A stretch of 64,000 nucleotides of DNA, from the NCBI GenBank assembly GCA_001786575.1, contig MFRW01000002.1:1717-65716 (forward strand), written 5' to 3'. Under the pieces are notes generated by a model. That model did no database searches and was not told where the DNA came from. It worked only from the letters and a program-made list of their open reading frames with translations. The position numbers were made by a program, and so were the translations under genes. This document shows positions 5,852-54,389 of the stretch, piece after piece. Numbering within the stretch: position 1 is the stretch's first letter; each line of letters begins with the position of its first letter. This stretch comes from Candidatus Moranbacteria bacterium RIFCSPHIGHO2_01_FULL_55_24. GTDB taxonomy: Bacteria; Patescibacteriota; Minisyncoccia; Moranbacterales; UBA1568.

Positions 5852-5886
5852 AATCCCTTTTTTGAAGGGTTTTCGGATATGCTATA

Positions 5887-5920: not shown

Positions 5921-5922
5921 GT

Positions 5923-6849: not shown

Positions 6850-6862
6850 GAGAAATAAACCT

Positions 6863-8104: not shown

Positions 8105-8113
8105 CGCTACCGT

Positions 8114-8905: not shown

Positions 8906-8923
8906 AAGATAATCGCCAAAGAT

Positions 8924-32141: not shown

Positions 32142-32828
32142 ATGAAAGCCATTATTCTCGCGGCCGGGATAGGAAATCGAATGATGCCGCTTACTGAAAA
32201 AATTCCTAAGCCGATGCTGCGGTTATCCGGCAAGCCTTTGCTCGAACATATTCTTGAGTATCTTCCCCAGGAGATAGACGAAATTATCATGGTAGTGGGG
32301 TACAAGAAAGAAGTGATACAAGATTACTTCAAGGAGTCTTTTCAAGGAAGAAAGATAACCTATCTTGTGCAAGAGAATCCCGCAGGGACTTTTGATGCGC
32401 TAAGTCTCTCTCGTCCGTACCTGGAAGATGGCGAGCGTTTTCTGCTTACTTTCGGGGATGATATCTATGATAGAGAAAGTGTGGCGCGGTGCCTGCGTCA
32501 CTCGTACGCTTTCCTCATCGGCGAGGTAGCTGATCCTCGGCGCTACGGTGTGGTTGTGTTCAATGAGGACGGGGAGACGATTCAAGAAATAGAGGAGAAG
32601 CCGGCGCATCCAAAGTCAAACTTTGTTGCGCCCGGGGTGTACATAGTAGATACGAGTATCTTTGATTATGCTCCTGATGCCCAGCTCTCCCAGGAGCATT
32701 ACCTGACGAATATGTTCAATCAGTTCGTAAAAGAGAACAGAGTTTTTGTAGAAAAAGTGGGTTTTTGGCTCACATTTGCTTATCCGGAGGATCTCGAGAA
32801 AGCTGAAGAATTACTGAAGCGACGCTAG
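32142..32828 (+). CDS. Sugar-1-phosphate nucleotidyltransferase (NTP_transferase family)
   Basis: MKAIILAAGIGNRMMPLTEKIPKPMLRLSGKPLL is the GxGxR pyrophosphorylase signature. This is the first gene of the low-GC island. Confidence 0.7.
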   Translation: MKAIILAAGIGNRMMPLTEKIPKPMLRLSGKPLLEHILEYLPQEIDEIIMVVGYKKEVIQDYFKESFQGRKITYLVQENPAGTFDALSLSRPYLEDGERFLLTFGDDIYDRESVARCLRHSYAFLIGEVADPRRYGVVVFNEDGETIQEIEEKPAHPKSNFVAPGVYIVDTSIFDYAPDAQLSQEHYLTNMFNQFVKENRVFVEKVGFWLTFAYPEDLEKAEELLKRR

Positions 32829-32978: not shown

Positions 32979-33521
32979 ATGAGCGAACTGCTAGACGTAT
33001 TGGACGAGCAAGGAATACAGACTGGTGTCAGCGTCCAAAGGTCAGAAGTGCACAAGAACGGTCTCTGGCACGGGACGGTTCACATATATGTTTGCAGGAT
33101 GATCGGTCAGAAGGTCGAAATCCTCGTCCACTTGAGGTCGGCTAGCAAGGATCTCTACCCGAATACGTGGGATCCGGTCTTAGGCGGCCATATCCAAGCT
33201 GGGAACACCCCAATTCAGACCGTCGAGGAAGAACTTAGTCAAGAAGTCGGGCTTTCTATATCTCCAGAGGACTTGATTGTCGGGCCGATAGTGAAAGCCG
33301 ACAAGGGTTCAGATAAAGAGTTCAACCACATCTTTGTGTACCTGTTTCCTTCTGATGCATCTGTGTATTTCAAGGACAATGAAGTACAAGAGGTTCGGTG
33401 GATGGAACTCGATGAAGTATTGCGAGCTATCGAGACCGCTCCTACCGAATGGCGGCCGACATGCGATGAGTTCTTGGCCGCTTATCCGGCAGTGACTTCC
33501 TTGCTCAAAGCACATAGCTAG
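32979..33521 (+). CDS. NUDIX hydrolase
   Basis: A Nudix-box-like GGHIQAGNTPIQTVEEELSQEVGL and the typical fold pattern. Length is 180 aa. Confidence 0.65.
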   Translation: MSELLDVLDEQGIQTGVSVQRSEVHKNGLWHGTVHIYVCRMIGQKVEILVHLRSASKDLYPNTWDPVLGGHIQAGNTPIQTVEEELSQEVGLSISPEDLIVGPIVKADKGSDKEFNHIFVYLFPSDASVYFKDNEVQEVRWMELDEVLRAIETAPTEWRPTCDEFLAAYPAVTSLLKAHS

Positions 33522-35752: not shown

Positions 35753-35780
35753 AGGCAGTTTATCGGAGTTGAATTGACAA

Positions 35781-35815
35781 GGCGTTTCCCTACAGGGGAG
35801 ACGCCTTTTTCTTTT
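35781..35815 (+). terminator. Rho-independent terminator
   Basis: GGCGTTTCCC-taca-GGGGAGACGCC followed by TTTTTCTTTT. Confidence 0.6.
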
Positions 35816-35882: not shown

Positions 35883-36860
35883 ATGATCAAATTTAGCTTC
35901 ATTGTTCCGGTCAAGGAGATCAATGCTTATATCCGCGAGGCGACTCCTATTATTCTCCAGATTCCGCGGGATGATTACGAAATCCTCATCTATCCGGATG
36001 AAGCGACGGATGAAACCTGGCCCAAGACCAGACAGATTCCGACCGGCCATTGCGGACCGGCAGAGAAGCGGAGCCGAGCTATCCAAGACGCACAGGGAGA
36101 AATATTGGTATTCATCGACGATGACGCTTATCCGGCACCGGATTTTCTGGACAAGCTGGAAGAAGATTTCCGGGATGCAGCCATAACGGCGGTGGGCGGT
36201 CCGGCTATTACGCCGCCGCATGACAGTTTCTGGCAGAAGGTATCCGGAGCGGTTTTCTTGAGTTCGCTTTCGGGCGGCGCTCCGGAGCGCTATGTACCGG
36301 TAGGGGAGAAGCACTTCGTTGATGATTGGCCGAGCGTCAATCTTTCGATCAGGAAAGAGGCTTTTGCCCGTTTGGGAGGATTCGACTGCGCGTATTGGCC
36401 GGGAGAGGATACCAAACTCTGCCTGGATCTCACTACGAAGCTGCAAGGGAAGATCCTTTATGATCCAGCGCTTCTCGTCTATCATCATCGGCGCGAGGGA
36501 CTGCTCCGCCATATGAAGCAGGTGAGCGGTTATGGATTGCATCGGGGGTTTTTCGCGAAAACCTACCCGGCGACCTCTTTCCGCTTCAAGTATTTCTTGC
36601 CGGCAGCTTTCCTCTTGTTTGCAGTTGTCGGGGCTTTGTTGGTGATGTTCCAGCCGGCATTCCTCCCATGGTATCTCTTGGGTTGGGCACTGTATGCCTT
36701 GGCGCTCGGGAAGGCAGCTTGGGATATCTACCGCTACGAGCGGAGCCTGGCTCTGACGCTTCATGCGCTCTATTATATCTTTTTCACCCATCTCGCGTAT
36801 GGGTGGAGCTTTCTTAAGGGTTTTTTGTGGGTACGGAAGCTCAAAAGCAAGCTTCGCTGA
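35883..36860 (+). CDS. Glycosyltransferase family 2 with a C-terminal membrane domain
   Basis: A GT2 A-fold (ILIYPDEATDE, VFIDDDAYP DxD). The C-terminal third contains 3-4 TM helices. Confidence 0.75.
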   Translation: MIKFSFIVPVKEINAYIREATPIILQIPRDDYEILIYPDEATDETWPKTRQIPTGHCGPAEKRSRAIQDAQGEILVFIDDDAYPAPDFLDKLEEDFRDAAITAVGGPAITPPHDSFWQKVSGAVFLSSLSGGAPERYVPVGEKHFVDDWPSVNLSIRKEAFARLGGFDCAYWPGEDTKLCLDLTTKLQGKILYDPALLVYHHRREGLLRHMKQVSGYGLHRGFFAKTYPATSFRFKYFLPAAFLLFAVVGALLVMFQPAFLPWYLLGWALYALALGKAAWDIYRYERSLALTLHALYYIFFTHLAYGWSFLKGFLWVRKLKSKLR

Positions 36861-36945: not shown

Positions 36946-37233
36946 ATGAGTTTCTGGAGGCCGAAAAGAACAAAAAATATGGAAGAATCGCAGAATGCAC
37001 GCACCGTGAAACATGATGATATCGAGATCCGCATCCTTCGTGAAAAATGCATCGGCGCGGCGACCTGCGTGGTGTATAGCCCATCCACTTTCGATTTGGA
37101 TGAGAGCAATATCGCTGTAGTGAAAGAAGGCCAATGGGATGAGCTGGAAAAGATCGTAGCTGGTGCCCAATCATGCCCGGTATTGGCAATCGAGGTATAC
37201 CAAGCTGGAAAAAAACTCTATCCAACTTCTTAA
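36946..37233 (+). CDS. Small [4Fe-4S]/[3Fe-4S] single-cluster ferredoxin
   Basis: CIGAATCV...SCPVLAIE fits the CxxAxxC...CP pattern of Pyrococcus-type ferredoxins. The start may be at the internal Met (36979). Confidence 0.6.
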   Translation: MSFWRPKRTKNMEESQNARTVKHDDIEIRILREKCIGAATCVVYSPSTFDLDESNIAVVKEGQWDELEKIVAGAQSCPVLAIEVYQAGKKLYPTS

Positions 37234-37244
37234 AATCTCACTCT

Positions 37245-38951
37245 ATGTCTACTATCCTTGATATACAAAAAAGGAACGAAAGCCCTTCCCGGGAGAAGAT
37301 CGATGTGACAGTCGTTGTCGGCTATCCTCCGATCAAGTCTGACAAAGGCGTGCCGCTTTTGAGCCAGAACCGCCAGTTCCAGTACTTCAACGCGCCGACG
37401 TACATCTATCCGATGGTGCCGGCGTATGCCGCATCGAATCTCCAGGACCAGGGATATCAGGTCTACTGGATGGACGGTATTTCAGAACACAAGGAATACG
37501 ACGAGTGGGTAGATGAACTGCGTGCGACGGGCGCCCAGTACCTCATGGTGGAGTCCAAATCTCCGATCATCAAGACACACTGGAAGCAGATCAATGACCT
37601 GAAGGAGAAACTTCCGAATCTGAAGCTGATCTGGGTGGGCGACCATCTTACATTCATGCCCCTGGAAACTTTGGAAAACAGCAATGTAGACTATGTCCTC
37701 GTGGGCGGTGATTATGACTTCTTGGTAGCCAATCTCTTGAACCATATCCATCGCGGCGAAGAGCTGGAAGGCGGGGTGTACTGGCGCGAAGGGGACGTCT
37801 CTATCAAAGCTGCTCCCAAAGAAGTCATCACTTTAGGAAACGGGAAAAAAGTAGCTACTTCCGGTCCGGATTGGGTGCGCCATAATCTCGATACTTTGCC
37901 TTTCGTTGATCGTGACCTGACCCGTTGGGAGCTCTATGCCTATGAGAATGGGAACTACAAGTATCTCCCGGGCACCTATATGTACAGCGGCCGCGACTGC
38001 TGGTGGAACCGCTGCACCTTCTGCGTGTGGGACCACACGATCAATCCGATCGGTACGTACCGCAGTTTCTCTCCGGAACGTCTCTTCGCCGAAGTGAAGC
38101 ACGTGGTGGATAAGTATGGCATCAAGGAAATCTTTGACGATGCCGGAACGCTCTTCATCGGCCCCAAGCTGAAGAAATTCTGCGAATTATTGATCGAGAG
38201 CGGCTATAACAAGAAAGTGAAGTATGGCTGCAACATGCGCTTCAATGCCCTGAACCAGGAATACTACAACCTGATGGGCAAGGCCGGCTTCCGCTTCATC
38301 CTCTACGGCATGGAGTCCGGCAACCAGAAGACGCTCGATAAGCTGGACAAGGGGACCAAGGAAGAGGATACGATCAATGGCGCCCGTATGGCATCGCAAG
38401 CCGGGCTCGAACCGCATGCGACAATCATGCTCGGGTATCCATGGGAAGATTATGAGGATTCCAAGCGCACGATAGCGGTCGCGAAATACTGCTTCAAGAA
38501 GGGCTACTTTGCTACGATGCAAGCGACGATTGTCGTGCCATACCCAGGGACGCCGCTCTGGAAAGAGTGCAAGGAGAAGGGATTGCTCCTGACCGAGGAT
38601 TACGATGATTACGACATGCGCGGATCAGTCATGAAGATTCCTCTCACCCAGGAACAGCTTATGAGCCTGACCCAGGATCTCTATTCCGCCTTCTTCTCAC
38701 CCCAGTTTATCTTCCGGAAGATCTTGAGCATCCGCAGCTTCGATGATATCAAATTCTTCACGTCTGCCGCCTATCGTCTGTTCGGACACCTACTGGACTT
38801 TGATCCGAACCAGACCAAAGTAAGTTTTACCTCGAAGGCTTTCTGGAAGACAGTCTTCAGCAAGATGTTCGGACACTTCTTCCGCCCGAAGACTTCGGTG
38901 GACGCCGAGAAGGATGCTGTACGTCTTCAGGATAGTGCTGTGAACCGCTAA
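37245..38951 (+). CDS. B12-binding-domain radical SAM enzyme (class B rSAM, methyltransferase-like)
   Basis: An N-terminal cobalamin-binding-like Rossmann domain (VTVVVGYPP...) is followed by a radical SAM core with the cysteine triad in DCWWNRCTFCVWD and a GYPWED-type C-terminal region. Length is 568 aa from the ATG at 37245. Confidence 0.8.
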   Translation: MSTILDIQKRNESPSREKIDVTVVVGYPPIKSDKGVPLLSQNRQFQYFNAPTYIYPMVPAYAASNLQDQGYQVYWMDGISEHKEYDEWVDELRATGAQYLMVESKSPIIKTHWKQINDLKEKLPNLKLIWVGDHLTFMPLETLENSNVDYVLVGGDYDFLVANLLNHIHRGEELEGGVYWREGDVSIKAAPKEVITLGNGKKVATSGPDWVRHNLDTLPFVDRDLTRWELYAYENGNYKYLPGTYMYSGRDCWWNRCTFCVWDHTINPIGTYRSFSPERLFAEVKHVVDKYGIKEIFDDAGTLFIGPKLKKFCELLIESGYNKKVKYGCNMRFNALNQEYYNLMGKAGFRFILYGMESGNQKTLDKLDKGTKEEDTINGARMASQAGLEPHATIMLGYPWEDYEDSKRTIAVAKYCFKKGYFATMQATIVVPYPGTPLWKECKEKGLLLTEDYDDYDMRGSVMKIPLTQEQLMSLTQDLYSAFFSPQFIFRKILSIRSFDDIKFFTSAAYRLFGHLLDFDPNQTKVSFTSKAFWKTVFSKMFGHFFRPKTSVDAEKDAVRLQDSAVNR

Positions 38952-39066: not shown

Positions 39067-39591
39067 ATGAGTTTGCTTTTTCATTTATCCCTTCATGTTT
39101 TCCTCGCTTTGCTTGCCGGATTCTTCGTCTGGCTCCTCTGGCGCCGCCCGGTTGTTTCTTTTGCCGCGGCTTTCCTCGGGGGAGTACTGATCGACCTTGA
39201 TCACCTCATCGATTACTTTTTGGCTTTCGGGTTGCATTTCAGGCTGGATTATTTCCTCCAGGGATACCAGTTTCTGAAGAGCGACAAGCTGTATGTCTTA
39301 TTCCATGGCTGGGAATATGTGGTGCTCCTGGCGGTGCTTGCCTTCGCTATGAAGAGTAAATTATGGCTTAAATCAGCCATTTTATCATTATCCCTCGGAA
39401 TGTTTTTTCATTTGCTAATAGATGTTAATATAAATGATGGGATGACCCTCAAAGGGTATTCTGTTTTTTATAGGACAGCGCAGGGTTTCGAGATTCAGGA
39501 AATCATGACCCCAGAACATTATAAGGACCACCAGCTCCGGAAGCAGGGGGCAACTTTCTTGGACGAGCCTGCTCTCTCGGATAAATTATAG
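39067..39591 (+). CDS. Hypothetical polytopic membrane protein (possibly a DUF457/YdjM-like metal-dependent hydrolase)
   Basis: 174 aa with 4-5 TM helices and conserved His/Asp residues (DLDHLIDY, HGWEY, HLLIDVN). Confidence 0.4.
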   Translation: MSLLFHLSLHVFLALLAGFFVWLLWRRPVVSFAAAFLGGVLIDLDHLIDYFLAFGLHFRLDYFLQGYQFLKSDKLYVLFHGWEYVVLLAVLAFAMKSKLWLKSAILSLSLGMFFHLLIDVNINDGMTLKGYSVFYRTAQGFEIQEIMTPEHYKDHQLRKQGATFLDEPALSDKL

Positions 39592-39597
39592 AAAATT

Positions 39598-40623
39598 ATG
39601 AAGAAAGCTCTCATTACAGGAATTACGGGACAGGACGGTTCTTATCTTGCCGAACTTCTACTCGAGAAAGGATATGAGGTGCATGGATTGCGCCGCGCAA
39701 CATCCGTATTCAATACTGAACGGATCGAGCATCTTATAGAGAATCCGGACCTCAATTTCCATCTTCATTATGGAGATATGACTGATTCAAGTAACTTGAA
39801 CCGGCTCTTAGAGCAGATCAAGCCGGATGAGATATACAATCTGGGAGCTCAATCGCATGTCCATCTCTCTTTTCAGGTGCCGGAATATACTGCAGAAGTC
39901 GACGGTATCGGGACACTCCGTCTGCTTGATGCGATCAAAGAAACTGGTATAAAGACAAAATTCTACCAAGCCTCAACCTCTGAACTTTTTGGGAAAGTCC
40001 AGGAGACGCCGCAAAAAGAGACAACTCCTTTCTATCCGCGTTCGCCATATGGCGCTGCCAAGCTGTATGCATACTGGATTGTCGTGAATTATCGAGAGGC
40101 CTATAATCTGTTCGCTTGTAATGGGATTCTTTTCAATCATGAGTCACCGCGGCGCGGAAAGACTTTTGTGACAAGGAAGATCACTTGGGGGATTGCCAAT
40201 ATCAAGAAGGGAAAACAGGAGAAGATCGCTATCGGCAATCTCGACGCCAAGCGTGACTGGGGACATGCCAAGGATTATGTCGAGGCTATGTGGCTCATGC
40301 TCCAGCAGGAAAAGCCGGAAGATTTCGTAATCTCTACGGGTGAGATGCACACGGTCCGGGAATTCTGTGAGCACGCTTTCCGAGAAGCGGGCTATGAGCT
40401 CATTTGGGAAGGGGAAGGGATTGATGAGAAGGGCATCGATAAGGCTACCGGCAAAGTATTGATTGAAGTTGATCCGAAATACTTCCGCCCAGCGGAAGTG
40501 GACCTTTTGATAGGGGACAACTCGAAGGCCAAGAAATTGCTTGGCTGGGAGCCGAAAGTGAAATTCGAAGAGCTGGTAAAGATCATGACGAGTGCCGACC
40601 TGGAGGGGAAGACTGATTATTAG
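39598..40623 (+). CDS. gmd: GDP-mannose 4,6-dehydratase
   Basis: [30 protein letters not shown]...GDMTDSSNL...[10 protein letters not shown] is the classic GMD sequence. Confidence 0.9.
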
Positions 40624-40650
40624 GTCCCTAACTTATTTTTTTAAAAAAGT

Positions 40651-41901
40651 ATGCTGTACGAAGAAATAAAACACTGCCGGATATGCGGTAACAAAAACTT
40701 GGTTTCGGTAGTTGATCTGGGAAGCCAGGCTTTGACCGGCGTTTTCCCGGCAGCAGGAGAAACGGTTGAGGAAGGTCCGCTTGAGATGGTGAAATGCTTC
40801 AGCGAAAGCGGAGAGGATGTCTGCGGCCTCGTACAGCTCAAGCATGATTATGAGATGGAAAAACTGTATGGAGACAACTATGGCTATCGTTCAGCACTCA
40901 ATAGGTCCATGGTGGAGCACCTTCAGGGGATAGTTGCGAAAATTGAGAGGAGAGTCTCTCTTACTTCCGGAGACTTGGTAGTGGATATCGCGAGCAACGA
41001 CGGAACGCTCCTCGCTGCGTACAAGAATCACGAACTTGATTTCTTAGGCGTAGATCCGACCTCGGAAAAGTTCAAGGAATATTACCCGGATTACATCAAG
41101 CATATCCCGAAATTCTTCTCGGCCGAAGCCGTAAGAAGCCAGGCGGGAGAGAAGAAAGCAAAAGTCGTGACCTCTATTGCGATGTTCTACGATCTTCCAG
41201 AACCGCTCCGCATCATGCAGGAAATTGAAAGCATCCTGGCTGACGACGGGATCTGGGTAGTAGAACAGAGCTATATGCCGGCTATGATCGATAATGTCTC
41301 TTACGATACGATTTGCCACGAGCATCTGGAGTACTACGCGCTGAAACAGTTCGTATGGATGGCTGAACGCTCCAACCTGAAGGTCATCGATGTGGAGTTC
41401 AATGATACCAATGGTGCGAGCTTCGCTATCACTTTCGCGAAGAAGGATGCACCTTATGAAGAGGCTGCAGAGAAAGTCAGAGAAATTCTCGGGAAAGAGG
41501 TCGAGCGCGGATTTGATGCTCTCGCAATATACGAGGAATTCCGGAAGAATACCGAGAAGCATAAAGAAGATCTGGTTGAATTCTTCAAGAATGCCGCTCG
41601 AGAAGGAAAGAAAATCTTCGGATACGGGGCATCGACCAAGGGGAACGTGATACTCCAGTATTGCGGGCTTACTCCGGAAGATATGCCGTATATCGCGGAA
41701 GTGAATGAATATAAATTCGGCAGATTCGTTCCAGGCACGATGATTCCGATTATCTCGGAAAAGGAGGCTCGAGAAATGCATCCTGATTACTTCATGGTGC
41801 TCCCGTGGCACTTCAAGAAGGGGATTGTGGAAAGGGAGCAGGAATACCTGAATTCCGGAGGCCACCTCTTGTTCCCTTTGCCGAAAATCGAGGTTGTATG
41901 A
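40651..41901 (+). CDS. NDP-hexose C-methyltransferase (TylCIII/CoeE-like) with an N-terminal Cys4 zinc-binding motif
   Basis: CRICGN...C...C at the N-terminus, then a class I SAM-methyltransferase core (VVDIASNDG) and the C-methyltransferase C-terminal domain. Length is 416 aa. Confidence 0.65.
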   Translation: MLYEEIKHCRICGNKNLVSVVDLGSQALTGVFPAAGETVEEGPLEMVKCFSESGEDVCGLVQLKHDYEMEKLYGDNYGYRSALNRSMVEHLQGIVAKIERRVSLTSGDLVVDIASNDGTLLAAYKNHELDFLGVDPTSEKFKEYYPDYIKHIPKFFSAEAVRSQAGEKKAKVVTSIAMFYDLPEPLRIMQEIESILADDGIWVVEQSYMPAMIDNVSYDTICHEHLEYYALKQFVWMAERSNLKVIDVEFNDTNGASFAITFAKKDAPYEEAAEKVREILGKEVERGFDALAIYEEFRKNTEKHKEDLVEFFKNAAREGKKIFGYGASTKGNVILQYCGLTPEDMPYIAEVNEYKFGRFVPGTMIPIISEKEAREMHPDYFMVLPWHFKKGIVEREQEYLNSGGHLLFPLPKIEVV

Positions 41902-42839
41902 CAAAGACCGCTGTCATCGTGGGAGCGGGAGGGCAAGACGGGAGGATTGCAACCGAGTATCTTTTGGGGAAAGGATATCGGATTCTTGGAATTGACCAGG
42001 GGATGGTAGAGGCGAAAGGTTTGGGATGGGAAAGACCTGTCGATATCAAAGACCATGAAGCGGTAACAGAACTTCTGGAAAAGTTGCGGCCTGATGAAGT
42101 GTATTATTTAGCCGCTTTCCATCATTCTTCCGAAGACGAGTCGATCAGCGACATCGAGCTTTTCCAATCCAGTTATCAAGTGCATGTGCTATCGCTTCTT
42201 TCTTTCTTGGAAGCGATCAAGTCTGTTTCGCCAGAAACCAAACTCTTCTACGCTGCCTCGTCGCTTATCTTCGGAGATGCGGACACGGAAGTTCAGGACG
42301 AAACGATACCGTTCAGCCCCGACAGCATCTATGGGATCACCAAGCTGGATGGGCTCACGCTCTGCCGATACTACCGGAAAAAGTACGATGTGTTCGCTTC
42401 TGTGGGAATACTCTATAACCATGAATCGGAATACCGGAGCGAAAAATTCATATCGATGAAGATCGTCCAGGCAGCTATAGATATCAAGGAAGGGAAGAGA
42501 AGCGAACTCGTCGTGGGAGATTTGGAGGCAGAAGTCGATTGGGGGTATGCACGCGACTATATAGATGCTATGCATCGGATTTTGAGTGCTGACAACGCCG
42601 ATGATTTCGTCATCGCTTCCGGGCAGAAGCATTCAGTTAAGGATCTTGCTGCGGAAGCATTCAGCTCTTTGGGGTTGGATTGGCAGGAATATGTGAAAGA
42701 AGATAAGCAGATTTTGACTCGGAAGAGGAAGGCTCTCGTAGGGGATTTTGGAAAGCTCAAGAGGGTTACAGGATGGGAGCCCGCGACAGGATTCGCCGAG
42801 ATGGTCCGATTGATGATCGATTATAAGAGCCGAAAGTGA
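41898..42839 (+). CDS. GDP-4-keto-6-deoxyhexose reductase (Rmd/GMD-family SDR)
   Basis: TAVIVGAGGQDGRIATEYLL has the GxxGxxG of the GMD/Rmd family, and YGITK is the YxxxK motif. It overlaps the preceding gene by ATGA. Confidence 0.7.
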   Translation: MTKTAVIVGAGGQDGRIATEYLLGKGYRILGIDQGMVEAKGLGWERPVDIKDHEAVTELLEKLRPDEVYYLAAFHHSSEDESISDIELFQSSYQVHVLSLLSFLEAIKSVSPETKLFYAASSLIFGDADTEVQDETIPFSPDSIYGITKLDGLTLCRYYRKKYDVFASVGILYNHESEYRSEKFISMKIVQAAIDIKEGKRSELVVGDLEAEVDWGYARDYIDAMHRILSADNADDFVIASGQKHSVKDLAAEAFSSLGLDWQEYVKEDKQILTRKRKALVGDFGKLKRVTGWEPATGFAEMVRLMIDYKSRK

Positions 42840-43993
42840 AGCATATGAAAATCGTCTTTATTTCCGGGATGCTGCCGTCAGGGCACTATTCCCAATACAT
42901 TACGAACGGTCTTTACCAGCATGCGAATGTTGATCTTTTGGTGTATGCAGATAAGAATCCGAAGAATCTGGAGATAAAAGGCTCTGGAACTGTCAAAACG
43001 GTCTGGTCGAAGTCGCTTCGCTATATCCCGGAAATATTAAGGGAGCTCCGCAAGGACAAGCCAGACGTGGTCCATCTGCAGCATGAACTCAATATGTATG
43101 GCGGCATGCTGACAGCGGCTCTGTTTCCGTTTCTTGTCGCATGTATCCGGCTATCGGGCTATCGAGTGGTGACTACGATCCATGCGGCGGTCTACAAGCA
43201 GCAAGTCGACAATGCTTTTATGAAGCTTTTCCATCAGGACTCTCCTCTTATCCGTCCGTTCATGCTGAAGCTTTTTTTCCATTACGTTTATAAGTCCCTT
43301 TCTCTTTTTTCCCATGAGATTATCGTGCATACGCACCTGACAAAACAGATACTCACGAGCGATTACGGAGTGGATGCGGAGAAAATATCTGTTATCCCCA
43401 TCGCGATTCCACAGAAGGAGATTGATAATTCCCGGAAGGAGAAATATTTCTTCTATTTCGGTTATATGGTGAGAAGGAAGGGATTGGGCTATGCTTTGGA
43501 TGGCTTCCGGCGCTTCATCGAAAAGAATCCAGGAAGCGAATACAAGCTGATGCTTGCCGGGGGGGTCATCAGGGGGCAGGAAAAGGCTTTCGAAGAGATA
43601 AAAGACATGATCAAGGAGAATAATCTCCAGGACAAGGTCATTATCAAGGGATTTATCGAGGAGAGCGAGCAGGATGATCTCTATCGGAAAGCCTATGCCG
43701 TAGTGATTCCGGCAGAAGTCTCGATGGGTTCCAGCGGCCCCTTGTTCCATTCAGTGAGCTATGGGAAGGCGGTCATCTGTTCTAAGATAGGGCATTTCCT
43801 GGAAGACATAGATGATGGGAATACTGGTATACTGACCGATAATGATAAGTGGCATGAAGCATTCTGGGATGCGGCCGATCACCCGGAAAAAATAGCGGCA
43901 ATCGAAAAGAATGTAGAGACAAAAGCGCGCTCGCGCAATCCATATTCGACTACTGGGAAATATATGGCGTTGTATAAAAAATCTGCGTTTTAA
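42836..43993 (+). CDS. Glycosyltransferase family 1 (GT4-type)
   Basis: A GT-B fold pattern with the E...E C-terminal motif region (EVSMGSSGPLFHSVSYGKAV). An alternative ATG start lies at 42845. Confidence 0.7.
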   Translation: MKHMKIVFISGMLPSGHYSQYITNGLYQHANVDLLVYADKNPKNLEIKGSGTVKTVWSKSLRYIPEILRELRKDKPDVVHLQHELNMYGGMLTAALFPFLVACIRLSGYRVVTTIHAAVYKQQVDNAFMKLFHQDSPLIRPFMLKLFFHYVYKSLSLFSHEIIVHTHLTKQILTSDYGVDAEKISVIPIAIPQKEIDNSRKEKYFFYFGYMVRRKGLGYALDGFRRFIEKNPGSEYKLMLAGGVIRGQEKAFEEIKDMIKENNLQDKVIIKGFIEESEQDDLYRKAYAVVIPAEVSMGSSGPLFHSVSYGKAVICSKIGHFLEDIDDGNTGILTDNDKWHEAFWDAADHPEKIAAIEKNVETKARSRNPYSTTGKYMALYKKSAF

Positions 43994-46081: not shown

Positions 46082-46873
46082 ATGAAATCGAAAAAGACCA
46101 CACTTGATCAATTTACGAGCATATACTCTCATCCTTCAGCCATCCTCTTTCGGGCGATCGAGATGAAAACGATCCATCAAAATCTCGAAGGCATCGAATT
46201 CTCGCACCCTTCCCTGGATCTTGGCTGTGGCGATGGAAGGATTGCCGAGCTTATTTTCGATCAACCCTTCACTTATGGAGTCGACAACGGTGAAGCAAAA
46301 GATGTGGGTGATGCGGTGGAAAGCGGGCGTTATGAGAAAATCTTTTTGGAAAGCGCAGAGAAGATGTCTCTACCTGACGATTCAGTCAACTTTGTCTTCA
46401 GTAATTGCGTGATTGAGCATATTCCGGATAATGAAGCAGTATTGAGCGAAACCAGCAGGATCCTGAAGAGGGGCGGCGCGTTCGTTTTTACAGTACCAAG
46501 CCATAACTTTCCTAACTATCTCTATCTGACGAATAAGTTCGCCTCCTGGGGACTAGGCTTCCTTTCCCGTTTTTACAAATACCGGAGAAATAAGATGCTA
46601 AACCAGTTCCACTGCTACAGCGCGGAAGATTGGCAGCAGAAGCTTGCGAAGCATGGGTTCAGGATAGTGAAACATGAATATTACATGACCCAAGAAGCTC
46701 TCATGCTCTGGGACAGGATAGCCTTAGAGCTTTTCTTCAAAAAGATCCTCTGGCCGCATTATGAGAAAAAGGCTCTTAGGAAGTACTTGGAATTGATCCG
46801 CAAGATAGCGGAAAGCGATAAATCACCTGAGGGTAAGGGGGCTGGCCTCTTCGTTTACTGTGTTAAAGATTAA
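46082..46873 (+). CDS. Class I SAM-dependent methyltransferase (Methyltransf_11-like)
   Basis: Motif I LDLGCGDGR and the post-I acidic residue are present, as is ILKRGGAFVFTVP. Confidence 0.75.
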   Translation: MKSKKTTLDQFTSIYSHPSAILFRAIEMKTIHQNLEGIEFSHPSLDLGCGDGRIAELIFDQPFTYGVDNGEAKDVGDAVESGRYEKIFLESAEKMSLPDDSVNFVFSNCVIEHIPDNEAVLSETSRILKRGGAFVFTVPSHNFPNYLYLTNKFASWGLGFLSRFYKYRRNKMLNQFHCYSAEDWQQKLAKHGFRIVKHEYYMTQEALMLWDRIALELFFKKILWPHYEKKALRKYLELIRKIAESDKSPEGKGAGLFVYCVKD

Positions 46874-46884
46874 TATAAATAAAC

Positions 46885-47610
46885 TTGAAACCAATATTTA
46901 TGATTAAAAAGTACCTGAAGCATCTTATTGAGACAGCAGAAGAAAATTATCTGAACAATCTTTATGATGGGATACGTGGATTGAATGTTGAAAGTATGTT
47001 AGATATAGGCTGTTATACTGGAGAAAATACCATCCAAATAGCCTCACTCTGTGATGCAAAGAAAGTTTATGGTATTGAATTGAATGAGGATGCAATCAAA
47101 ATAGCAAAGGGGAGGGGCGTAGAGGTCTATAAGCAAGATATAAATGAAGCGCATTGGAATATAGAAGACAACTCCATTGATTTTATTTATAGTAACCAGG
47201 TTATTGAACATCTTTACTCGGTGGATAACTTCATTAAGAATATAAAAAGAATTTTAAAAAAAGATGGGTATTTACTTATTTCTACAGAAAATCTTGCAGG
47301 ATGGCACAATTGCTTCTCATTGATTTTAGGGTATCAACCATTTAGCACAACAAATATATGCACGAAACAGTGGAGTATTGGGAATCCTCTAAGCATGGTG
47401 TTAGACGGTCATCATGATCCACTCATGGTGCATCGAGCAGTATTTACTTACTATGCGTTGAAAAAATTCTTAGAACTTTATGATTTTAAAATAGAAAAAC
47501 CTATCACTTCAGGGTATTATCCTTTACCTAATAAGTTAGGAAATATTTTTGCCAAGATTGACAGAAGACATTCGGTTTATATTGCATTTCTAGTGAAGAA
47601 TATTAAATAA
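46885..47610 (+). CDS. Class I SAM-dependent methyltransferase (second copy, very AT-rich)
   Basis: MLDIGCYTGEN (motif I) and NQVIEHLYSV...ILKKDGYLLIST are present. GC is about 33%. Confidence 0.7.
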   Translation: MKPIFMIKKYLKHLIETAEENYLNNLYDGIRGLNVESMLDIGCYTGENTIQIASLCDAKKVYGIELNEDAIKIAKGRGVEVYKQDINEAHWNIEDNSIDFIYSNQVIEHLYSVDNFIKNIKRILKKDGYLLISTENLAGWHNCFSLILGYQPFSTTNICTKQWSIGNPLSMVLDGHHDPLMVHRAVFTYYALKKFLELYDFKIEKPITSGYYPLPNKLGNIFAKIDRRHSVYIAFLVKNIK

Positions 47611-47617
47611 GAAGAAG

Positions 47618-50116
47618 ATGTTAAAAAAGCTTCGAATAAGTAAAGTTTTGAAATACTTCCAGGGGTCTAGAGGGATTCTCTTCGCAATTCTTCTTTTGGC
47701 ATTGGCGTTGCGGGTCTGGGGTATCGATTCGAGAGACATCTGGTATGATGAGCTTCTGACAATACAGCAATCAGAGAAAAGTATTTCGGAAATCAATGTT
47801 GATGTTCCGACGCCAATACACTATTACTTCGTCCATCTTTTCCTCTTTTTCGGTAAGAGTACCTCGGTGCTTGGGCTACCCTCGGTTATTTTCGGTCTTC
47901 TGACCGTCCTCCTTGTTTTTTTGACGGCAAAGAGGATTGCGGATGAAAGAGTCGGATTGGTCGCCGCGTTTCTCTTGGCGATTTCTCCGATGCACATCGA
48001 ATTCTCCCAGCAAATTCTTTTTTTCTCATACTTCACATTCTTTTCTTCGCTTATCCTCTATCTTGTTACCGACTTCATATTTCATTTTGAAGAAGGCAGG
48101 TTCAAATGGGGCCATCTTCTGCTTCTCGTCTTCGCGAACTGGGTGAATGTCCTGACCCAGATGCTCGCTCTTGTTCTCATCCCTGTCCAGCTGCTCTTTT
48201 TCTGCTATTTGCTCGCGAAGAACCCGAAAGTAATGCTGGTCTTCAAGAAGTACCTGGCATTAATATTGATACTGATTGCCGCGCTCTTCTCGATACTTCT
48301 GTCCATAGGGAGCGGGGGATATGCGAGTTTTCTCGAGACGCTCCACATCGGTTTCGAAAGACCGATTACGGTCGGATACTCGCTTTCTAGCCAGTTGGGG
48401 TCGACGATAGTCAGTTCCCCAATGAAACTCTTCCAGGCGATGTTTTCGTGGTTCGGAATCGGAGGAGGTATCGGGCTTCCTGTCTATGTTTGTTTCTTCT
48501 TCATAGGCTTGATTGCTTTGTTTTGGAAGAAAGTTTCCCGATCCGCTGCTTTCTTCTTTGTTCTCTGGCTTGCGGCACCGTTCGTTGTCCTTTTTTCAGT
48601 GAGGATTGAGCACTGGTTCGAGGAAAAGTATTTCATCTTCATGATTCCGGTCTATCTGATCTTTATCGCCTTAGGAATCGTCTTCTTTTCCGAATATACA
48701 GGAAGGTTGGTGAGAGAAAAAATCAGCATTTTGAAAATCAAAGGTTTTGCAGTTTTCTTTCTGGCGCTGATCTTAGTCGGCATCGCTTTCTTAGCGGTCG
48801 AACCGATCAAGAGCCGGACGGCTTTCGGATTCCCATTCGAGGGTTATGCGAAATACAACTGGAGAAAGGTCTATGATTATTTGAAGAAAAACGTGAATGA
48901 GAACGATAGAGTATTCCTCGTGAAAGGAGGATCCGATTTTTTGGACTATTACTATGCTGCCGATAAGAACGAAAGCTTATTGTTGGACGAAGAATCCATA
49001 ATGAAGCTTTCTTCGAAGGAGTACTCTCATCTTGTCGAAAACCAAGAGCAGAATTATTTCATTTCTATCCCGGATTACAACTATCTCTTTTTGAGCGATA
49101 TCACGACTTATGAAAAGATCAAGATGGTAGGGAATTTCGGGATATATAAAATACGATTCAAAAAAGAGAGTCCGGTAGAGATAAAAAGGGACGCAGCTGG
49201 CGAATGGGAATATTATGAAGACTTCCGGACGTCGCGGTATATAGGGCAGGCGCATGACTGGAAAAATAGCGCTACGACGTATTCGGATGTGCCGGGTATT
49301 CCTGAAACCGAAGGCTTCAATGAACTCGTGCCGCTCAACTCCGGAGAATCTTTCATAGATTACAAGCTCGTTCTTCCTGAAGGAACAAAGAGTTTTTACC
49401 TGAAATCAGGATTCTCGCTTGATCAGGGATCTTCATTCCAGATACTCATTGGCGAAAGCCAGGATGCGCTGCGTGTTATTTATGACCAGTCAGCCGGAGA
49501 ACTCTCTTACTTCCTCCCCGAGATGAAGATTGACTATGATACAAAGAAGTCGAAAGATCTGTTTCTGCGGATGCGTTTTAACCAGGCTCCCGGCGCTTCA
49601 GGAGAATTGAACAAGTCAGGGCTCAAATTTTTTAGCTTGAGCAGCCGCTTGTACGACGGTGTCAGATTTCCCGAAGACTATACGCCGCAAAAATCCGTTA
49701 AGGGCTCCTCCCAGGAATACCTCTATAATGCCTTTCTTGAGATAGAAAAGAGCTCAAAATGGACCCATGCTACTATTATGAGTGATGGCTGGATCCAAAC
49801 GAATGACGGATTCTTGGTAAGGATTTACGGTACCAAGGAGGCTAACCCTTTGGTATTCAAATTCGCTACGGGGGAAGAGGAACGCGATTGTGATCTCGAG
49901 ATAAAATCTTTCGCGAACCATGATAATCCATTCGAGGTGTATACAAGCCAGGATGGAAAGACTTGGGAACTTCTCAAGAAAATGAATGATAATGTATTTA
50001 AAATTGATACGTTCAGCATCAAGGATATCGCTTCAGGAGATCTCTTCCTGAAATTTACTTCCGAAAAAGAAGGAGTTTCAAGTCAGATCAGGAACATAAA
50101 GGCAATATGTAAGTGA
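47618..50116 (+). CDS. GT-C membrane glycosyltransferase (PMT/ArnT GT39/GT83-like) with a large C-terminal extracytoplasmic domain
   Basis: 832 aa. A DE motif sits in the first extracytoplasmic loop (DIWYDELLT). About 11 TM helices are followed by a roughly 450-aa beta-rich soluble domain. Confidence 0.6.
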   Translation: MLKKLRISKVLKYFQGSRGILFAILLLALALRVWGIDSRDIWYDELLTIQQSEKSISEINVDVPTPIHYYFVHLFLFFGKSTSVLGLPSVIFGLLTVLLVFLTAKRIADERVGLVAAFLLAISPMHIEFSQQILFFSYFTFFSSLILYLVTDFIFHFEEGRFKWGHLLLLVFANWVNVLTQMLALVLIPVQLLFFCYLLAKNPKVMLVFKKYLALILILIAALFSILLSIGSGGYASFLETLHIGFERPITVGYSLSSQLGSTIVSSPMKLFQAMFSWFGIGGGIGLPVYVCFFFIGLIALFWKKVSRSAAFFFVLWLAAPFVVLFSVRIEHWFEEKYFIFMIPVYLIFIALGIVFFSEYTGRLVREKISILKIKGFAVFFLALILVGIAFLAVEPIKSRTAFGFPFEGYAKYNWRKVYDYLKKNVNENDRVFLVKGGSDFLDYYYAADKNESLLLDEESIMKLSSKEYSHLVENQEQNYFISIPDYNYLFLSDITTYEKIKMVGNFGIYKIRFKKESPVEIKRDAAGEWEYYEDFRTSRYIGQAHDWKNSATTYSDVPGIPETEGFNELVPLNSGESFIDYKLVLPEGTKSFYLKSGFSLDQGSSFQILIGESQDALRVIYDQSAGELSYFLPEMKIDYDTKKSKDLFLRMRFNQAPGASGELNKSGLKFFSLSSRLYDGVRFPEDYTPQKSVKGSSQEYLYNAFLEIEKSSKWTHATIMSDGWIQTNDGFLVRIYGTKEANPLVFKFATGEEERDCDLEIKSFANHDNPFEVYTSQDGKTWELLKKMNDNVFKIDTFSIKDIASGDLFLKFTSEKEGVSSQIRNIKAICK

Positions 50117-50138: not shown

Positions 50139-50927
50139 ATGAAAACGGTAATACTATGTGGAGGAAAGGGTACACGGTTACGGGAAGAGACTGAATTTAA
50201 ACCGAAACCGATGGTAGAGATCGGCGACCTTCCTATACTGGTACATATCATGCGGTTTTATGCCGAACAGGGGTTTAACGAATTCGTTTTGTGTCTTGGG
50301 TACAAAGGGGATGTCATCAAGGATTATTTCCTTAATCTGTCGAAATTCGTAAATGATTTCCATCTTGATCTGAAGACGAACAGTATCGAATATCTCAATA
50401 ATGGGCACAACTTTGATTTCAAGATCACTTTTGTTGAAACGGGCGAGGATACGCAGAGCGGAGAACGTGTCAAAATGGCATCGAAGTATATTCCGGAAGA
50501 AGAATTCATGGTGACGTATGGGGACGGTGTGAGTGATATCGATATACGGAAACTGATACAGTTCCACAAGAAGCAGAAGCAGAAGCACGGGACAGTCACT
50601 ACGCTTTCAGCTGTGCATCCATCTTCGAAATACGGAAAGATCTATGCTGACAAAAACAATGTGCTAGAGAAATTTGACGAAAAGCCGGTGCTTGCTGACT
50701 ATATCAATGGCGGTTTCATGGTCATGGAAAAAGCGGCGCTCAAGTATATCAAGGATGGGGATATGCTGGAGGATGGTCTGCAGAAAATGACGAAGAAGCA
50801 TAAGCTTTCACAGTACTGCCATAGCGGTTTCTGGCACAGTATGGATACGATGAAAGATGTCATGGACCTCAATAAGATGTGGGAAAGCGGAAAGCGCCCT
50901 TGGGCTCTTTGGGAAACTAAGCGGTAA
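50139..50927 (+). CDS. rfbF: Glucose-1-phosphate cytidylyltransferase
   Basis: MKTVILCGGKGTRLREETEFKPKPMVEIGDLPIL...GGFMVMEK is the canonical RfbF/DdhA sequence. Confidence 0.9.
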   Translation: MKTVILCGGKGTRLREETEFKPKPMVEIGDLPILVHIMRFYAEQGFNEFVLCLGYKGDVIKDYFLNLSKFVNDFHLDLKTNSIEYLNNGHNFDFKITFVETGEDTQSGERVKMASKYIPEEEFMVTYGDGVSDIDIRKLIQFHKKQKQKHGTVTTLSAVHPSSKYGKIYADKNNVLEKFDEKPVLADYINGGFMVMEKAALKYIKDGDMLEDGLQKMTKKHKLSQYCHSGFWHSMDTMKDVMDLNKMWESGKRPWALWETKR

Positions 50928-50958
50928 TCCATTTATTTTTTCTTCATTCTTGTCTTTT

Positions 50959-52038
50959 ATGCAGCGCTTCTTCAAAGGAAAAAAAATTCTTATCACGGGA
51001 AATACCGGTTTCAAGGGTTCTTGGCTTACGGAGATATTATTACAGTGGGGTGCTGACATTGTCGGCGTTTCGCTTCCGCCAAAAACAGAACCAAACCTTT
51101 TCGCTATCCTGAATTTGGAGCAGCGGATAAAAAACTATTTTCTCGATATAAGGGATTTCGATGCCTTGAAGAAGGTGATTGCCGACGAGCGTCCGGAAAT
51201 AGTCTTTCATCTTGCGGCGCAGCCGATCGTGCGGATAAGCTATGATGATCCTCTAACGACCTATTCAACCAATGCTCTCGGTACTGCAAATGTTTTGCAG
51301 GCGATCCATGAGGTTGGGTCCGTGAGGGCAGCGGTAATCATCACTACGGACAAGGTTTATAAGAATGTCGAGTGGATATACCCGTACCGTGAAAACGACC
51401 CCTTAGGGGGGTATGATCCTTACAGCGCCAGCAAGGCGGCTGCCGATATCATTGCGCAATCGTACATACAATCTTTTTTCAATCCGAAGGACTTTGGGAA
51501 AAAGCATCAGACGCTCGTAGCTATTGCGCGCGCCGGGAACGTGATCGGAGGAGGGGATTGGGGGGAGTATAGGCTGGTTCCTGACATTGTGAGGTCGATA
51601 TATGAAAAGAATGAGAAAGTAATTATCAGGAGTCCGCGAGCTATCCGTCCCTGGGAGCATGTTCTTGAGCCGCTTGCGGGATATCTCGAGCTCGCTTCCG
51701 GTCTGTATGCCGGGAAAATCGAATATTCGGATGCCTGGAATTTCGGGCCGGACCATGAAAGTTTCATGAATGTCGAAGAGCTCGTCAAGCGGGCCACGGC
51801 GCTTTTAGCGAAAGGCACATATGAGATCCGGGAAGATAATACGAAACATGAGGCCGGAATCCTGATGCTTGATACCACCAAGGCAAAATCTTTTTTGGAT
51901 TGGTCGCCAAGATTGAGGTTTCAAGAGAATATCGACTTCACATTCAGCTGGTATAGGAACTATTACGAAAAAGCAGCGGACCCTATCGAGTTCACAGACG
52001 CACAGATCAAGTCCTTCTTCAATGATGCAAGTTCCTAA
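50959..52038 (+). CDS. rfbG: CDP-glucose 4,6-dehydratase
   Basis: KKILITGNTGFKGSWL...YSASKAAAD...RAGNVIGGGDW is the canonical RfbG/DdhB sequence. The start is set at the ATG at 50959; the ORF-track 50857 is an extension. Confidence 0.9.
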   Translation: MQRFFKGKKILITGNTGFKGSWLTEILLQWGADIVGVSLPPKTEPNLFAILNLEQRIKNYFLDIRDFDALKKVIADERPEIVFHLAAQPIVRISYDDPLTTYSTNALGTANVLQAIHEVGSVRAAVIITTDKVYKNVEWIYPYRENDPLGGYDPYSASKAAADIIAQSYIQSFFNPKDFGKKHQTLVAIARAGNVIGGGDWGEYRLVPDIVRSIYEKNEKVIIRSPRAIRPWEHVLEPLAGYLELASGLYAGKIEYSDAWNFGPDHESFMNVEELVKRATALLAKGTYEIREDNTKHEAGILMLDTTKAKSFLDWSPRLRFQENIDFTFSWYRNYYEKAADPIEFTDAQIKSFFNDASS

Positions 52039-52136
52039 GATCGGTCGAAATCGCCTCGGCCAGCTGCTGATAAAATCCAGATTAGAGCAGCCGGAACTTC
52101 CAGGTCGGACCAGAGTAAGCAACTGAAAAAGAGATT

Positions 52137-53438: not shown

Positions 53439-54373
53439 TTAAGACTGTCCTCATAACCGGTATTGCTGGTTTCCTCGGCAGCCATTTGGCTGAAAGATTG
53501 ATTCATGACGGATATGCTGTGGTAGGACTGAAACTTGCGGATTCTGACCTCTGGAGGCTTGAACCTTTCGCAGAGAAGTTGAAACTCTATGATGCTGATT
53601 CCAGAGATTTTGAACGTATCTTTACCGAGAATAAGATAGATTGCATCATTCATCTGGCAACATACTACACAAAAGACCACCCTTCTCCTGACGAGATGAC
53701 GCAGATGATTGATGCGAACATCAAGTCTCCTACGGAGCTCTGCGAGCTTGCGGACAATTATAACGTCAGATATTTCATCAATACTGGTACATTTTTCGAA
53801 TATAAACTCGGAAGTCCTGATCTGATACAGGAAAATGATGAGAGAAGCGCATATAACTTCTACGCTGCCACGAAAATAGCCTTTTCGGAATTGCTTAGGT
53901 TTTTTACAGAGAAGAAAGATTTAACCGCTATCGATTTCAAGCTTTTTGCGCCGTTCGGAGAGAAGGATAATGAGAAGCTCATAGTATTCTTGGTAAAGTC
54001 ATTGCTTGACGGGTCTCATGTTGAATTTTCTGGAGGGGAGCAGGCTTGGAATTTCACGTATGTAGACGACATTATCGAGGCTTATGCATGCGCGCTTAAG
54101 AGAATGGATGGCCTTGCTGAAAAGTATACCGTGCTGAACGTCGGTTCCGGATCTACTGTGACTATTCGAGAGATTGTAGAAAAGTTGGAAAAGATATCCG
54201 GGAAAAAGCTTGATATCGAGTGGGGAGCCAAGACGTACAGAGAGAATGAAATTTTCCATGTGAATTGTGACAATTCCCGATTGAAAAAAGTCCTCGGGTG
54301 GGAACAGAAATTTGATGTAGACAGCGGATTGGAGAAAACATATCGTTATTATGCGACGGCAGCTAATCTATAG
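53435..54373 (+). CDS. NAD(P)-dependent CDP-3,6-dideoxyhexose synthase/4-reductase (RfbS/RfbJ/AscF-like SDR)
   Basis: VLITGIAGFLGSHLAERL (GxxGxxG) and YAATKIA (YxxxK). It overlaps rfbH by ATGA. Length is 312 aa. Confidence 0.7.
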   Translation: MIKTVLITGIAGFLGSHLAERLIHDGYAVVGLKLADSDLWRLEPFAEKLKLYDADSRDFERIFTENKIDCIIHLATYYTKDHPSPDEMTQMIDANIKSPTELCELADNYNVRYFINTGTFFEYKLGSPDLIQENDERSAYNFYAATKIAFSELLRFFTEKKDLTAIDFKLFAPFGEKDNEKLIVFLVKSLLDGSHVEFSGGEQAWNFTYVDDIIEAYACALKRMDGLAEKYTVLNVGSGSTVTIREIVEKLEKISGKKLDIEWGAKTYRENEIFHVNCDNSRLKKVLGWEQKFDVDSGLEKTYRYYATAANL

Positions 54374-54389
54374 GAATCAATAACATATT

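Follow-up and report, generated by a model that had tools for sequence, protein, structure and literature searches.

The groundwater bacterium Candidatus Moranbacteria bacterium RIFCSPHIGHO2_01_FULL_55_24 carries a three-gene cassette that, in our reading, would make a C-methyl-branched 6-deoxyhexose on a guanosine diphosphate (GDP) carrier, starting from GDP-mannose and destined for a glycan of the cell surface. The cassette lies in a stretch of 64,000 nt from contig MFRW01000002.1 (assembly GCA_001786575.1), which was analysed as a whole and is called the window here. It comprises a gene for GDP-mannose 4,6-dehydratase (GMD), a gene for a TylCIII-type sugar C-methyltransferase and a gene for a GMD paralogue that lacks the glutamate of the dehydratases. 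We assign a probability of about 0.62 to the reading that these three genes form a GDP-sugar branch ending in GDP-6-deoxy-3-C-methylhexose, the stereochemistry of which is not readable from the sequence. Three things carry this prediction: the first enzyme is a GMD by every sequence measure applied, the second groups with validated sugar C-methyltransferases, and across many phyla the methyltransferase keeps company with GMD and its paralogue, at times within a single polypeptide chain.

The cassette and its boundaries

The three open reading frames (ORFs) span positions 39598 to 42839, exactly where a preliminary description made from the DNA alone had placed them, and are followed by the gene for a family 4 glycosyltransferase (GT4):

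39598-40623, + strand: gene 1, gmd, encoding GDP-mannose 4,6-dehydratase, 341 aa (OGI22332.1)
40651-41901, + strand: gene 2, TylCIII-type C-methyltransferase, 416 aa (OGI22333.1)
41898-42839, + strand: gene 3, GMD paralogue, a GMD-like extended short-chain dehydrogenase/reductase (SDR), 313 aa (OGI22334.1)
42836-43993, + strand: GT4 glycosyltransferase (PF00534, PF13692, PF13439)

The accessions of the three cassette proteins were assigned by identity, and all three proteins are encoded on one 269-kb contig. They were deposited under the names 'GDP-mannose 4,6-dehydratase', 'methyltransferase' and 'hypothetical protein', respectively.

The preliminary description had called the cassette translationally coupled. 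This applies to the methyltransferase gene and gene 3, and also to gene 3 and the GT4 gene, but not to gmd and the methyltransferase gene, which are separated by a spacer of 27 nt. For gene 3, we place the start at ATG 41898 rather than at the upstream GTG 41805, from which the ORF list counts. The ATG stands in the sequence gtATGAca and overlaps the end of the methyltransferase gene (stop codon at 41899-41901) by 4 nt, within ATGA, and the start is matched by the 313-aa OGI22334.1 with 100% identity and coverage. At its other end, the TGA of gene 3 overlaps the GTG start of the GT4 gene (GTGA at 42836-42839).

Every gene between about 34.6 kb and 62 kb is encoded on the + strand, and from 37.1 to 50 kb the hairpin scan met with no strong structure of the terminator-like kind. 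Two strong terminator-like hairpins with T-rich tails, at 35779-35807 (13 bp) and 36782-36808 (10 bp), are the last signals of this kind ahead of the long series of + strand genes to which the cassette belongs. Promoter and terminator predictions do not rise above background and can only suggest operon limits.

A canonical GMD for the first step

The product of gene 1 scores 574 bits in a profile search with the TIGR01472 gmd model, well beyond the cutoff of 415, and shares 62% identity with E. coli GMD (1DB3) and 51% with P. aeruginosa GMD (1RPN). It also carries the RR loop (GLRRATS) and a TSE...YxxxK motif. A review of nucleotide-sugar dehydratases treats [ST]SE..Yx3K as the diagnostic signature of GMDs, in which the single Glu is the one additional residue that dehydration requires (PMC8987622, Table 1). 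With an equivalog score above cutoff, the [ST]SE...Yx3K motif and the RR loop all in place, the assignment of gene 1 as a canonical GMD, already made in the preliminary description, is well supported, and the enzyme should produce GDP-4-keto-6-deoxy-D-mannose.

A TylCIII-type C-methyltransferase for the predicted second step

Gene 2 encodes a protein of three domains: a zinc-binding N-terminal domain (PF08421, Methyltransf_13, 7e-13), a class I S-adenosylmethionine (SAM) domain (PF13489, Methyltransf_23, 8e-12) and a Methyltransf_14 C-terminal domain (PF08484, 1e-51), all of them above the gathering cutoffs. The N-terminal CxxC...C...C motif that had been pointed out beforehand proved to be made of the zinc ligands Cys9, Cys12, Cys49 and Cys58, which are invariant in 29 homologues and also present in the antibiotic enzymes TylCIII, EryBIII and AviG1. 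Invariant in the same 29 homologues is C222-H223-E224-H225 (CHEH), which aligns with CHEH of TylCIII, EryBIII, AviG1 and Coxiella CBU_0691, with YHEH of MtmC and with YDEH of KijD1. We take Glu224 and His225 (TcaB9 numbering) to be the catalytic pair of the window enzyme, with their roles transferred from mutagenesis work on TcaB9.

Over about 412 residues, the protein is 48.3% identical to TylCIII, 50.8% to EryBIII and 51.5% to AviG1, and over its full length it is 49% identical to CBU_0691; the sequences of these four enzymes are those printed in the supplement to a paper on virenose in Coxiella (PMC3539893). Among chains of the PDB, the best match is MtmC, followed by KijD1 and TcaB9, with E-values ranging from 6e-59 for MtmC to 4e-41 and alignments that run end to end. 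The E-values are far beyond chance, and the preliminary assignment as TylCIII-like is upheld: the protein groups with validated sugar C-methyltransferases, not with O- or N-methyltransferases.

The neighbour-joining tree of the methyltransferases is star-like, so that function cannot be read from its topology; genes in a GDP context dominate the radiation, the antibiotic enzymes occupy a small subclade of actinomycetes inside it, and MtmC and KijD1 are distant outgroups. Gene 2 is best described as a TylCIII-type NDP-4-ketohexose C-methyltransferase and is predicted to act as a GDP-4-keto-6-deoxymannose 3-C-methyltransferase, with the placement of the methyl group at C3 inferred by homology. 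Judged from genomic context, fusions and signature residues, dTDP-4-keto-2,6-dideoxyhexose (dTDP, deoxythymidine diphosphate), the substrate of the antibiotic enzymes, would probably not be its substrate.

A GMD paralogue without the dehydratase glutamate

What, then, is the third gene? Its product matches PF16363 (2.7e-67), and its best PDB match is P. aeruginosa GMD (1RPN, 195 bits, 2e-56), but its 197 bits on TIGR01472 fall short of the cutoff of 415. The preliminary description had put it in a 'GMD/Rmd family', of which the first half stands and the second does not: measured by bit scores to PDB chains, it is far from the Rmd lineage (58 bits and 1e-14 to 2PK3, 52 bits to 6X3B). Nor is it an enzyme of the GDP-fucose synthase (GMER) type, in line with the earlier description. 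It scores 27 bits on the GDP-fucose synthase model NF047922 (cutoff 500), BLAST against sequences from a paper supplement gave no match to E. coli GMER (1E6U) or Coxiella CBU_0688, and two positions past the catalytic Ser it has Leu, not Cys. In E. coli GMER, Cys109 and His179 are the epimerisation pair.

Gene 3 reads AASSLIFG at the active site, so that Glu128 has become Leu, at position 123 of the protein, followed by YGITK and NHES, and a GID after strand 2 (GIDQGMV) replaces the RR loop. In an alignment of 163 members of the paralogue family with 32 true GMDs, position 128 is Leu in 106 of the 163 and His in 48, with other non-acidic residues in the rest and Glu in none. The RR loop is lost across the family (Ser37 replaced by Val or Ile, Arg43 deleted), Arg218 has become Val or Ile, RPxEV is rewritten, and Ser85 is replaced by His in 154 of 163 members. 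Retained are the Rossmann motif GxxGQDG, Ser127, Tyr150, Lys154, NHES, Arg185 and DWG.

With SSL in place of SSE, no RR loop and a score below cutoff, gene 3 falls outside GMD proper. NCBI and JGI have named its homologues 'GDP-mannose 4,6-dehydratase' in Moranbacteria, Omnitrophota, Planctomycetota, Margulisbacteria and others; because the GMD signature fails, this label is doubtful. By sequence, gene 3 belongs to a cohesive family of GMD paralogues outside both the Rmd and the GDP-fucose synthase lineages. Without the Glu, such a paralogue should be unable to dehydrate, and the loss of the RR loop probably means that NADP is not kept any more as a prosthetic group, so that NAD(P)H would be exchanged with each turnover. 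The two losses together make a 4-ketoreductase the best reading, and gene 3 is predicted to be an NAD(P)H-dependent GDP-4-keto-6-deoxy-3-C-methylhexose 4-ketoreductase, with an Rmd-like activity in a separate lineage.

Context, fusions and signature residues point to a GDP-sugar

Sequence identity alone cannot settle the sugar carrier of the methyltransferase, because its validated relatives use dTDP-sugars and the genome encodes rmlB, rmlD and rmlA. The preliminary description had assigned GDP from the adjacency of gmd alone. This assignment is now backed by fusions of GMD with the methyltransferase and by context counts across phyla, and a GDP-sugar substrate is strongly supported by three independent lines: context, fusions and signature residues.

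A scan of one genome per species returned at least 598 matches to the methyltransferase, spread over Patescibacteria, Bacteroidota, Planctomycetota, Verrucomicrobiota, Chloroflexota, Acidobacteriota, Cyanobacteria, Proteobacteria and Actinomycetes. C-branched GDP-sugars, which had been called unusual, are so in characterised chemistry, but the cassette is common in genomes. Context was counted in the 80 best loci. A true GMD (at least 48% identity, Glu present) lies within 5 kb of the methyltransferase gene in 26 of them; among other sugar genes, RmlB was found nearby once, RmlA twice and GMER three times. The paralogue without Glu was detected near the methyltransferase in 41 of the 80 loci, with three more partial or split copies (about 44 loci in all) and another case hidden in a fusion; in 40 loci it immediately follows the methyltransferase gene, spaced by -6 to +28 nt. 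The order gmd, methyltransferase, paralogue is kept in genomes of Moranbacteria, Falkowbacteria, Parcubacteria, Nocardia, Bdellovibrionota, Omnitrophota and Polyangiaceae. Carriers of the methyltransferase that are in culture include Spirulina subsalsa FACHB-351 (L064), Nocardia sp. NPDC020380 (L076) and Methylobacterium oxalidis (L081).

The hidden case is a protein of 733 aa in a Falkowbacteria genome (L008, 1423-3621), in which methyltransferase and paralogue form one chain. A search with this fusion yielded 15 fusion clusters (P0243-P0257): eight with GMD ahead of the methyltransferase, four with the methyltransferase ahead of GMD, and three with methyltransferase and paralogue. In all 12 clusters of the first two kinds, the GMD half shares 55-69% identity with the window GMD and retains both the Glu motif and the RR loop, and the three methyltransferase-paralogue fusions (P0243-P0245) have the motif without Glu. 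The occurrence of GMD and methyltransferase in two orders indicates independent fusion events. Here, too, annotation follows the dehydratase: NCBI names the GMD-methyltransferase fusion P0247 simply 'GDP-mannose 4,6-dehydratase'.

Finally, seven positions of the methyltransferase are at least 90% conserved in 56 enzymes from a GDP context and different in all three dTDP enzymes (TylCIII, EryBIII and AviG1). Six of them (T220, N251, N254, F258, H387 and F388) are common to the window enzyme, CBU_0691, a Nocardia methyltransferase (L076) and all but one of the 15 fusion methyltransferases, the exception being P0250 with V at 258. In the tree, the Nocardia enzyme is placed with the TylCIII trio, yet it has gmd and the paralogue in its context.

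Proposed pathway

In the pathway that we propose, GMD forms GDP-4-keto-6-deoxy-D-mannose from GDP-D-mannose, a step that is well supported. The methyltransferase would then use Glu224 and His225 to deprotonate the carbon adjoining the 4-keto group and transfer the methyl group of SAM to the resulting enolate, which, with C3 as the position suggested by its homologues, would give GDP-4-keto-6-deoxy-3-C-methylhexose. The paralogue, which keeps Ser, Tyr, Lys and the NHES sugar-binding motif, would reduce C4 to yield GDP-6-deoxy-3-C-methylhexose; stripped of the dehydration Glu and of the RR loop that locks NADP in place, it would work as an ordinary 4-ketoreductase that exchanges NAD(P)H. In the last step, the overlapping GT4 would add the sugar to the glycan of the surrounding cluster, as synteny in L001, L004, L020 and L086 suggests. 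GT4 orthologues with 60-78% identity stand directly after the methyltransferase or the paralogue in these four loci and in L002, which makes the enzyme a candidate transferase for the branched GDP-sugar.

Which sugar this might be is a matter of speculation. If the methyl group attacks from the same face as in TylC3, where it ends up axial as in evalose, the product could be GDP-D-evalose or its 4-epimer. Evalose, with an axial methyl group, is found in the O-antigen of Burkholderia andropogonis (PMC7203242).

Alternative readings

Several observations weigh against a branch that runs from GMD through C3-methylation to a reduction by the paralogue, and some of them concern the last enzyme. The orthologous clusters L086 and L020 consist of a radical SAM (rSAM) gene, the methyltransferase gene and the GT4 gene without the paralogue, which is therefore not universally required. 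In six other loci (L052, L057, L066, L078, L082 and L087), another GMD-like partner, with 43-48% identity to GMD, stands in for the paralogue; its Glu is preserved but the RR loop is absent, and in L087 (6282-7292) it has NSES instead of NHES. In addition, MtmC, the best PDB match of the methyltransferase, has been described (there as the S. argillaceus 'TylCIII', CAK50784.1) as a bifunctional enzyme with a 4-ketoreductase activity of its own (PMC3539893). Gene 3 might then be an epimerase or a parallel GDP-D-rhamnose reductase, for which the His found at the former Glu position in 48 of 163 paralogues could serve as acid/base, and the ketoreduction would fall to the methyltransferase itself, as in MtmC, or to an enzyme encoded elsewhere. 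We consider this unlikely, given that the paralogue directly follows the methyltransferase in half of the 80 loci and overlaps it in the window, that the two are fused in three independent clusters, that the paralogue retains Ser, Tyr, Lys and the Rossmann motif, and that a 4-keto product requires a reductase ahead of ordinary glycosyl transfer. A further question is posed by the position of the methyl group. A 4-keto group activates C3-H and C5-H alike, the C5-methyltransferases of the NovU type are reported to be homologous to TylCIII, and the star-like tree offers no functional reading. Methylation at C5 by the window enzyme, as by NovU, CloU and CouU in noviose biosynthesis, would give a GDP-6-deoxy-5-C-methylhexose with a gem-dimethyl C5; it is nevertheless quite improbable, with an enzyme that shares 48-51% identity with three C3-methyltransferases along its whole length, and given that the C-methyl 6-deoxyhexoses of bacterial glycans found in the literature searched are all 3-C-methyl sugars (evalose, virenose and 3-C-methylmannose).

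Other objections bear on the carrier. The window holds no dedicated manB or manC, only an unspecific nucleotidyltransferase of 228 aa (32142-32828), and rmlB, rmlD and rmlA are located 31-35 kb upstream of the cassette, which means that dTDP-4-keto-6-deoxyhexose is available to the cell. Moreover, no biochemically characterised GDP-sugar C-methyltransferase was found in the searchable full-text literature, which is not proof of absence; with no characterised enzyme of the GDP-context clade found there, all that follows the first step is inference. Could the methyltransferase simply use the dTDP-sugar made by the genome's own rmlA and rmlB (the latter scoring 503 bits on TIGR01181), the adjacency of gmd being a coincidence? 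All of its validated relatives do use dTDP-sugars, and its 48% identity to TylCIII is about the same as that to many GDP-context homologues. Coincidence would, however, have to account for a ratio of GMD to RmlB of 26 to 1 within 5 kb of the methyltransferase in 80 species, for 12 clusters of GMD/methyltransferase fusions in two orientations and for signature residues that follow the GDP context even in the actinomycete Nocardia, with the rml genes themselves far away in a flank of higher G+C; we regard it as very unlikely. Still less credible is that gene 1 encodes a GDP-manno-heptose 4,6-dehydratase of the DmhA/WcbK type, with a C-methyl 6-deoxyheptose as the product: the nucleotidyltransferase at 32142-32828 does have a sub-threshold match to HddC (121 bits, cutoff 300), but gene 1 scores above the cutoff of the gmd equivalog, and its product shares 62% identity with E. 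coli GMD. The heptose reading was set aside, as none of the scanned window ORFs matched GmhA, HddA or GmhB.

Neighbouring genes and the wider glycan cluster

Two genes directly upstream of gmd belong to the conserved surroundings of the cassette:

37173-38951, + strand: B12-binding rSAM enzyme (PF04055 and PF02310)
39067-39591, + strand: hydrophobic protein of 174 aa, no Pfam or NCBIfam match, ending 6 nt ahead of gmd

The best NCBIfam matches of the rSAM enzyme are HpnJ (144 bits) and BchE, all below cutoff. Its orthologues (49-84% identity) are found upstream of the methyltransferase in L001, L002, L004, L020 and L086, the last two without the paralogue, and in L001, L002 and L004 an orthologue of the 174-aa protein (45-59% identity) separates the rSAM gene from gmd. 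The conserved block of Patescibacteria reads B12-rSAM, 174-aa membrane protein, gmd, methyltransferase, paralogue (not in all) and GT4. It is tempting, though the odds are low, to see in this block the means to make a doubly carbon-modified sugar, in which 3-C-methylation by the methyltransferase would be followed by a cobalamin-dependent rSAM alkylation or rearrangement at an unactivated carbon. The outcome may be a branched GDP-sugar or glycan residue without a described counterpart, and such a role would explain why L086 and L020 keep rSAM, methyltransferase and GT4 in the absence of the paralogue.

The block is part of a large glycan cluster. G+C is 0.40-0.50 over the whole glycan cluster (about 32000-62000), compared with 0.53-0.60 in the flanks, and the GC skew is consistently positive within it, which is typical of a laterally exchanged polysaccharide island. 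A second deoxysugar branch, at 50139-54878, comprises a glucose-1-phosphate cytidylyltransferase (274 bits), a CDP-glucose 4,6-dehydratase (CDP, cytidine diphosphate; 464 bits), an RfbH/E1-type 3-dehydrase (692 bits), an SDR and an RmlC-like cupin, and resembles a pathway to a CDP-3,6-dideoxyhexose. Two adjacent class I SAM methyltransferases of the Methyltransf_11 family (46082-46873 and 46885-47610), downstream of glycosyltransferases and syntenic in L001 and L004, are candidates for glycan O-methylation. They are followed by an 832-aa membrane transferase of the GT-C type (PMT_2-like, 47618-50116). Further downstream lie an 1164-aa protein with an N-terminal GT2 domain only (54891-58385) and two ORFs of 328 and 730 aa without a Pfam match (58463-61641).

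On the upstream side, a Nudix hydrolase (32979-33521) is conserved near gmd; in L001 (5830-6366) and L002 it is located directly upstream on the opposite strand, and a faint Nudix match precedes the methyltransferase-GMD fusion in L087. The scores of the Nudix hydrolase give no ground for calling it a GDP-mannose mannosyl hydrolase. The rml genes are part of a group at 4847-9805 that consists of rmlB (4847-5851), rmlD, rmlA (8105-8905) and galU, with glyA (serine hydroxymethyltransferase) between the rml genes.

Implications

Should the prediction hold, the cassette would represent the first pathway found with a GDP-dependent sugar C-methyltransferase, for which the searchable literature offers no biochemical precedent, and it would be a widespread one, with the methyltransferase at 598 or more places in species-representative genomes of many phyla. 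It would also supply a genetic basis for the 3-C-methyl 6-deoxyhexoses that occur sporadically in O-antigens, such as evalose in Burkholderia andropogonis and virenose in Coxiella. The paralogue would stand for a new lineage of reductases that arose from GMD by the loss of one catalytic residue, and a systematic label would need to be corrected, as the paralogues are mostly named GDP-mannose 4,6-dehydratase. In all this, the prediction extends established chemistry and does not overturn it.

Comparison with known systems

The closest characterised relatives of the methyltransferase are TylCIII (TylC3) from Streptomyces fradiae, EryBIII from Saccharopolyspora erythraea and AviG1 from S. viridochromogenes, which have the same three domains, four-Cys zinc site and FYDL and CHEHLEYY motifs as the window enzyme and perform the same SAM-dependent methylation beside a 4-keto group as we propose for it. 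These are dTDP-4-keto-2,6-dideoxyhexose 3-C-methyltransferases from macrolide and orthosomycin antibiotic clusters, and their substrates are 2-deoxy sugars. The window methyltransferase differs from them in its six signature residues and in being flanked, within a glycan cluster, by gmd and a GMD paralogue. The 3-C-methyltransferases of solved structure, MtmC (4RV9), KijD1 (5T64) and TcaB9 (3NDI), share Glu224 and His225 with it; Tyr222 and His181 of TcaB9 and KijD1 are Cys222 and Asp181 in the whole TylCIII-type clade, including the window enzyme.

Natural 3-C-methyl hexoses are documented in bacterial glycans of H. pylori, B. andropogonis and Coxiella. For virenose of Coxiella burnetii, a GDP route has been proposed in silico only, with CBU_0689 as gmd, CBU_0691 as a TylCIII-like methyltransferase and CBU_0688 as a GMER-like enzyme (PMC3539893). 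Both loci thus combine GMD with a TylCIII-like methyltransferase, and CBU_0691 has all six signature residues, although as printed in that paper it is without the N-terminal CxxC of the window enzyme. The two part ways at the final enzyme, which in Coxiella is an epimerase/reductase of the GDP-fucose synthase type and in the window a GMD paralogue without similarity to GMER, so that a different sugar configuration is to be expected. The window contains no GMER-type gene at 30% identity or more to 1E6U or CBU_0688; the only matches are weak (21-26% identity) and belong to general SDRs at 4847, 31148 and 53354.

The route to GDP-D-rhamnose through GMD and RMD in P. aeruginosa and Aneurinibacillus thermoaerophilus (1RPN, 2PK3, 6X3B) shares with the proposed pathway the GMD step, a stereospecific 4-ketoreduction by an extended SDR and a downstream GT4-type transferase. 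In the window, a C-methylation would be inserted between the first two, and the predicted reductase resembles GMD (195 bits) far more than RMD (58 and 52 bits). The sequence of dehydratase, C-methyltransferase and 4-ketoreductase is itself classical for dTDP-sugars in antibiotic pathways. What is predicted to set the window locus apart is that the same logic would be carried out on a GDP-linked sugar, with a reductase recruited from GMD, within a large glycan cluster of a candidate-phyla-radiation bacterium.

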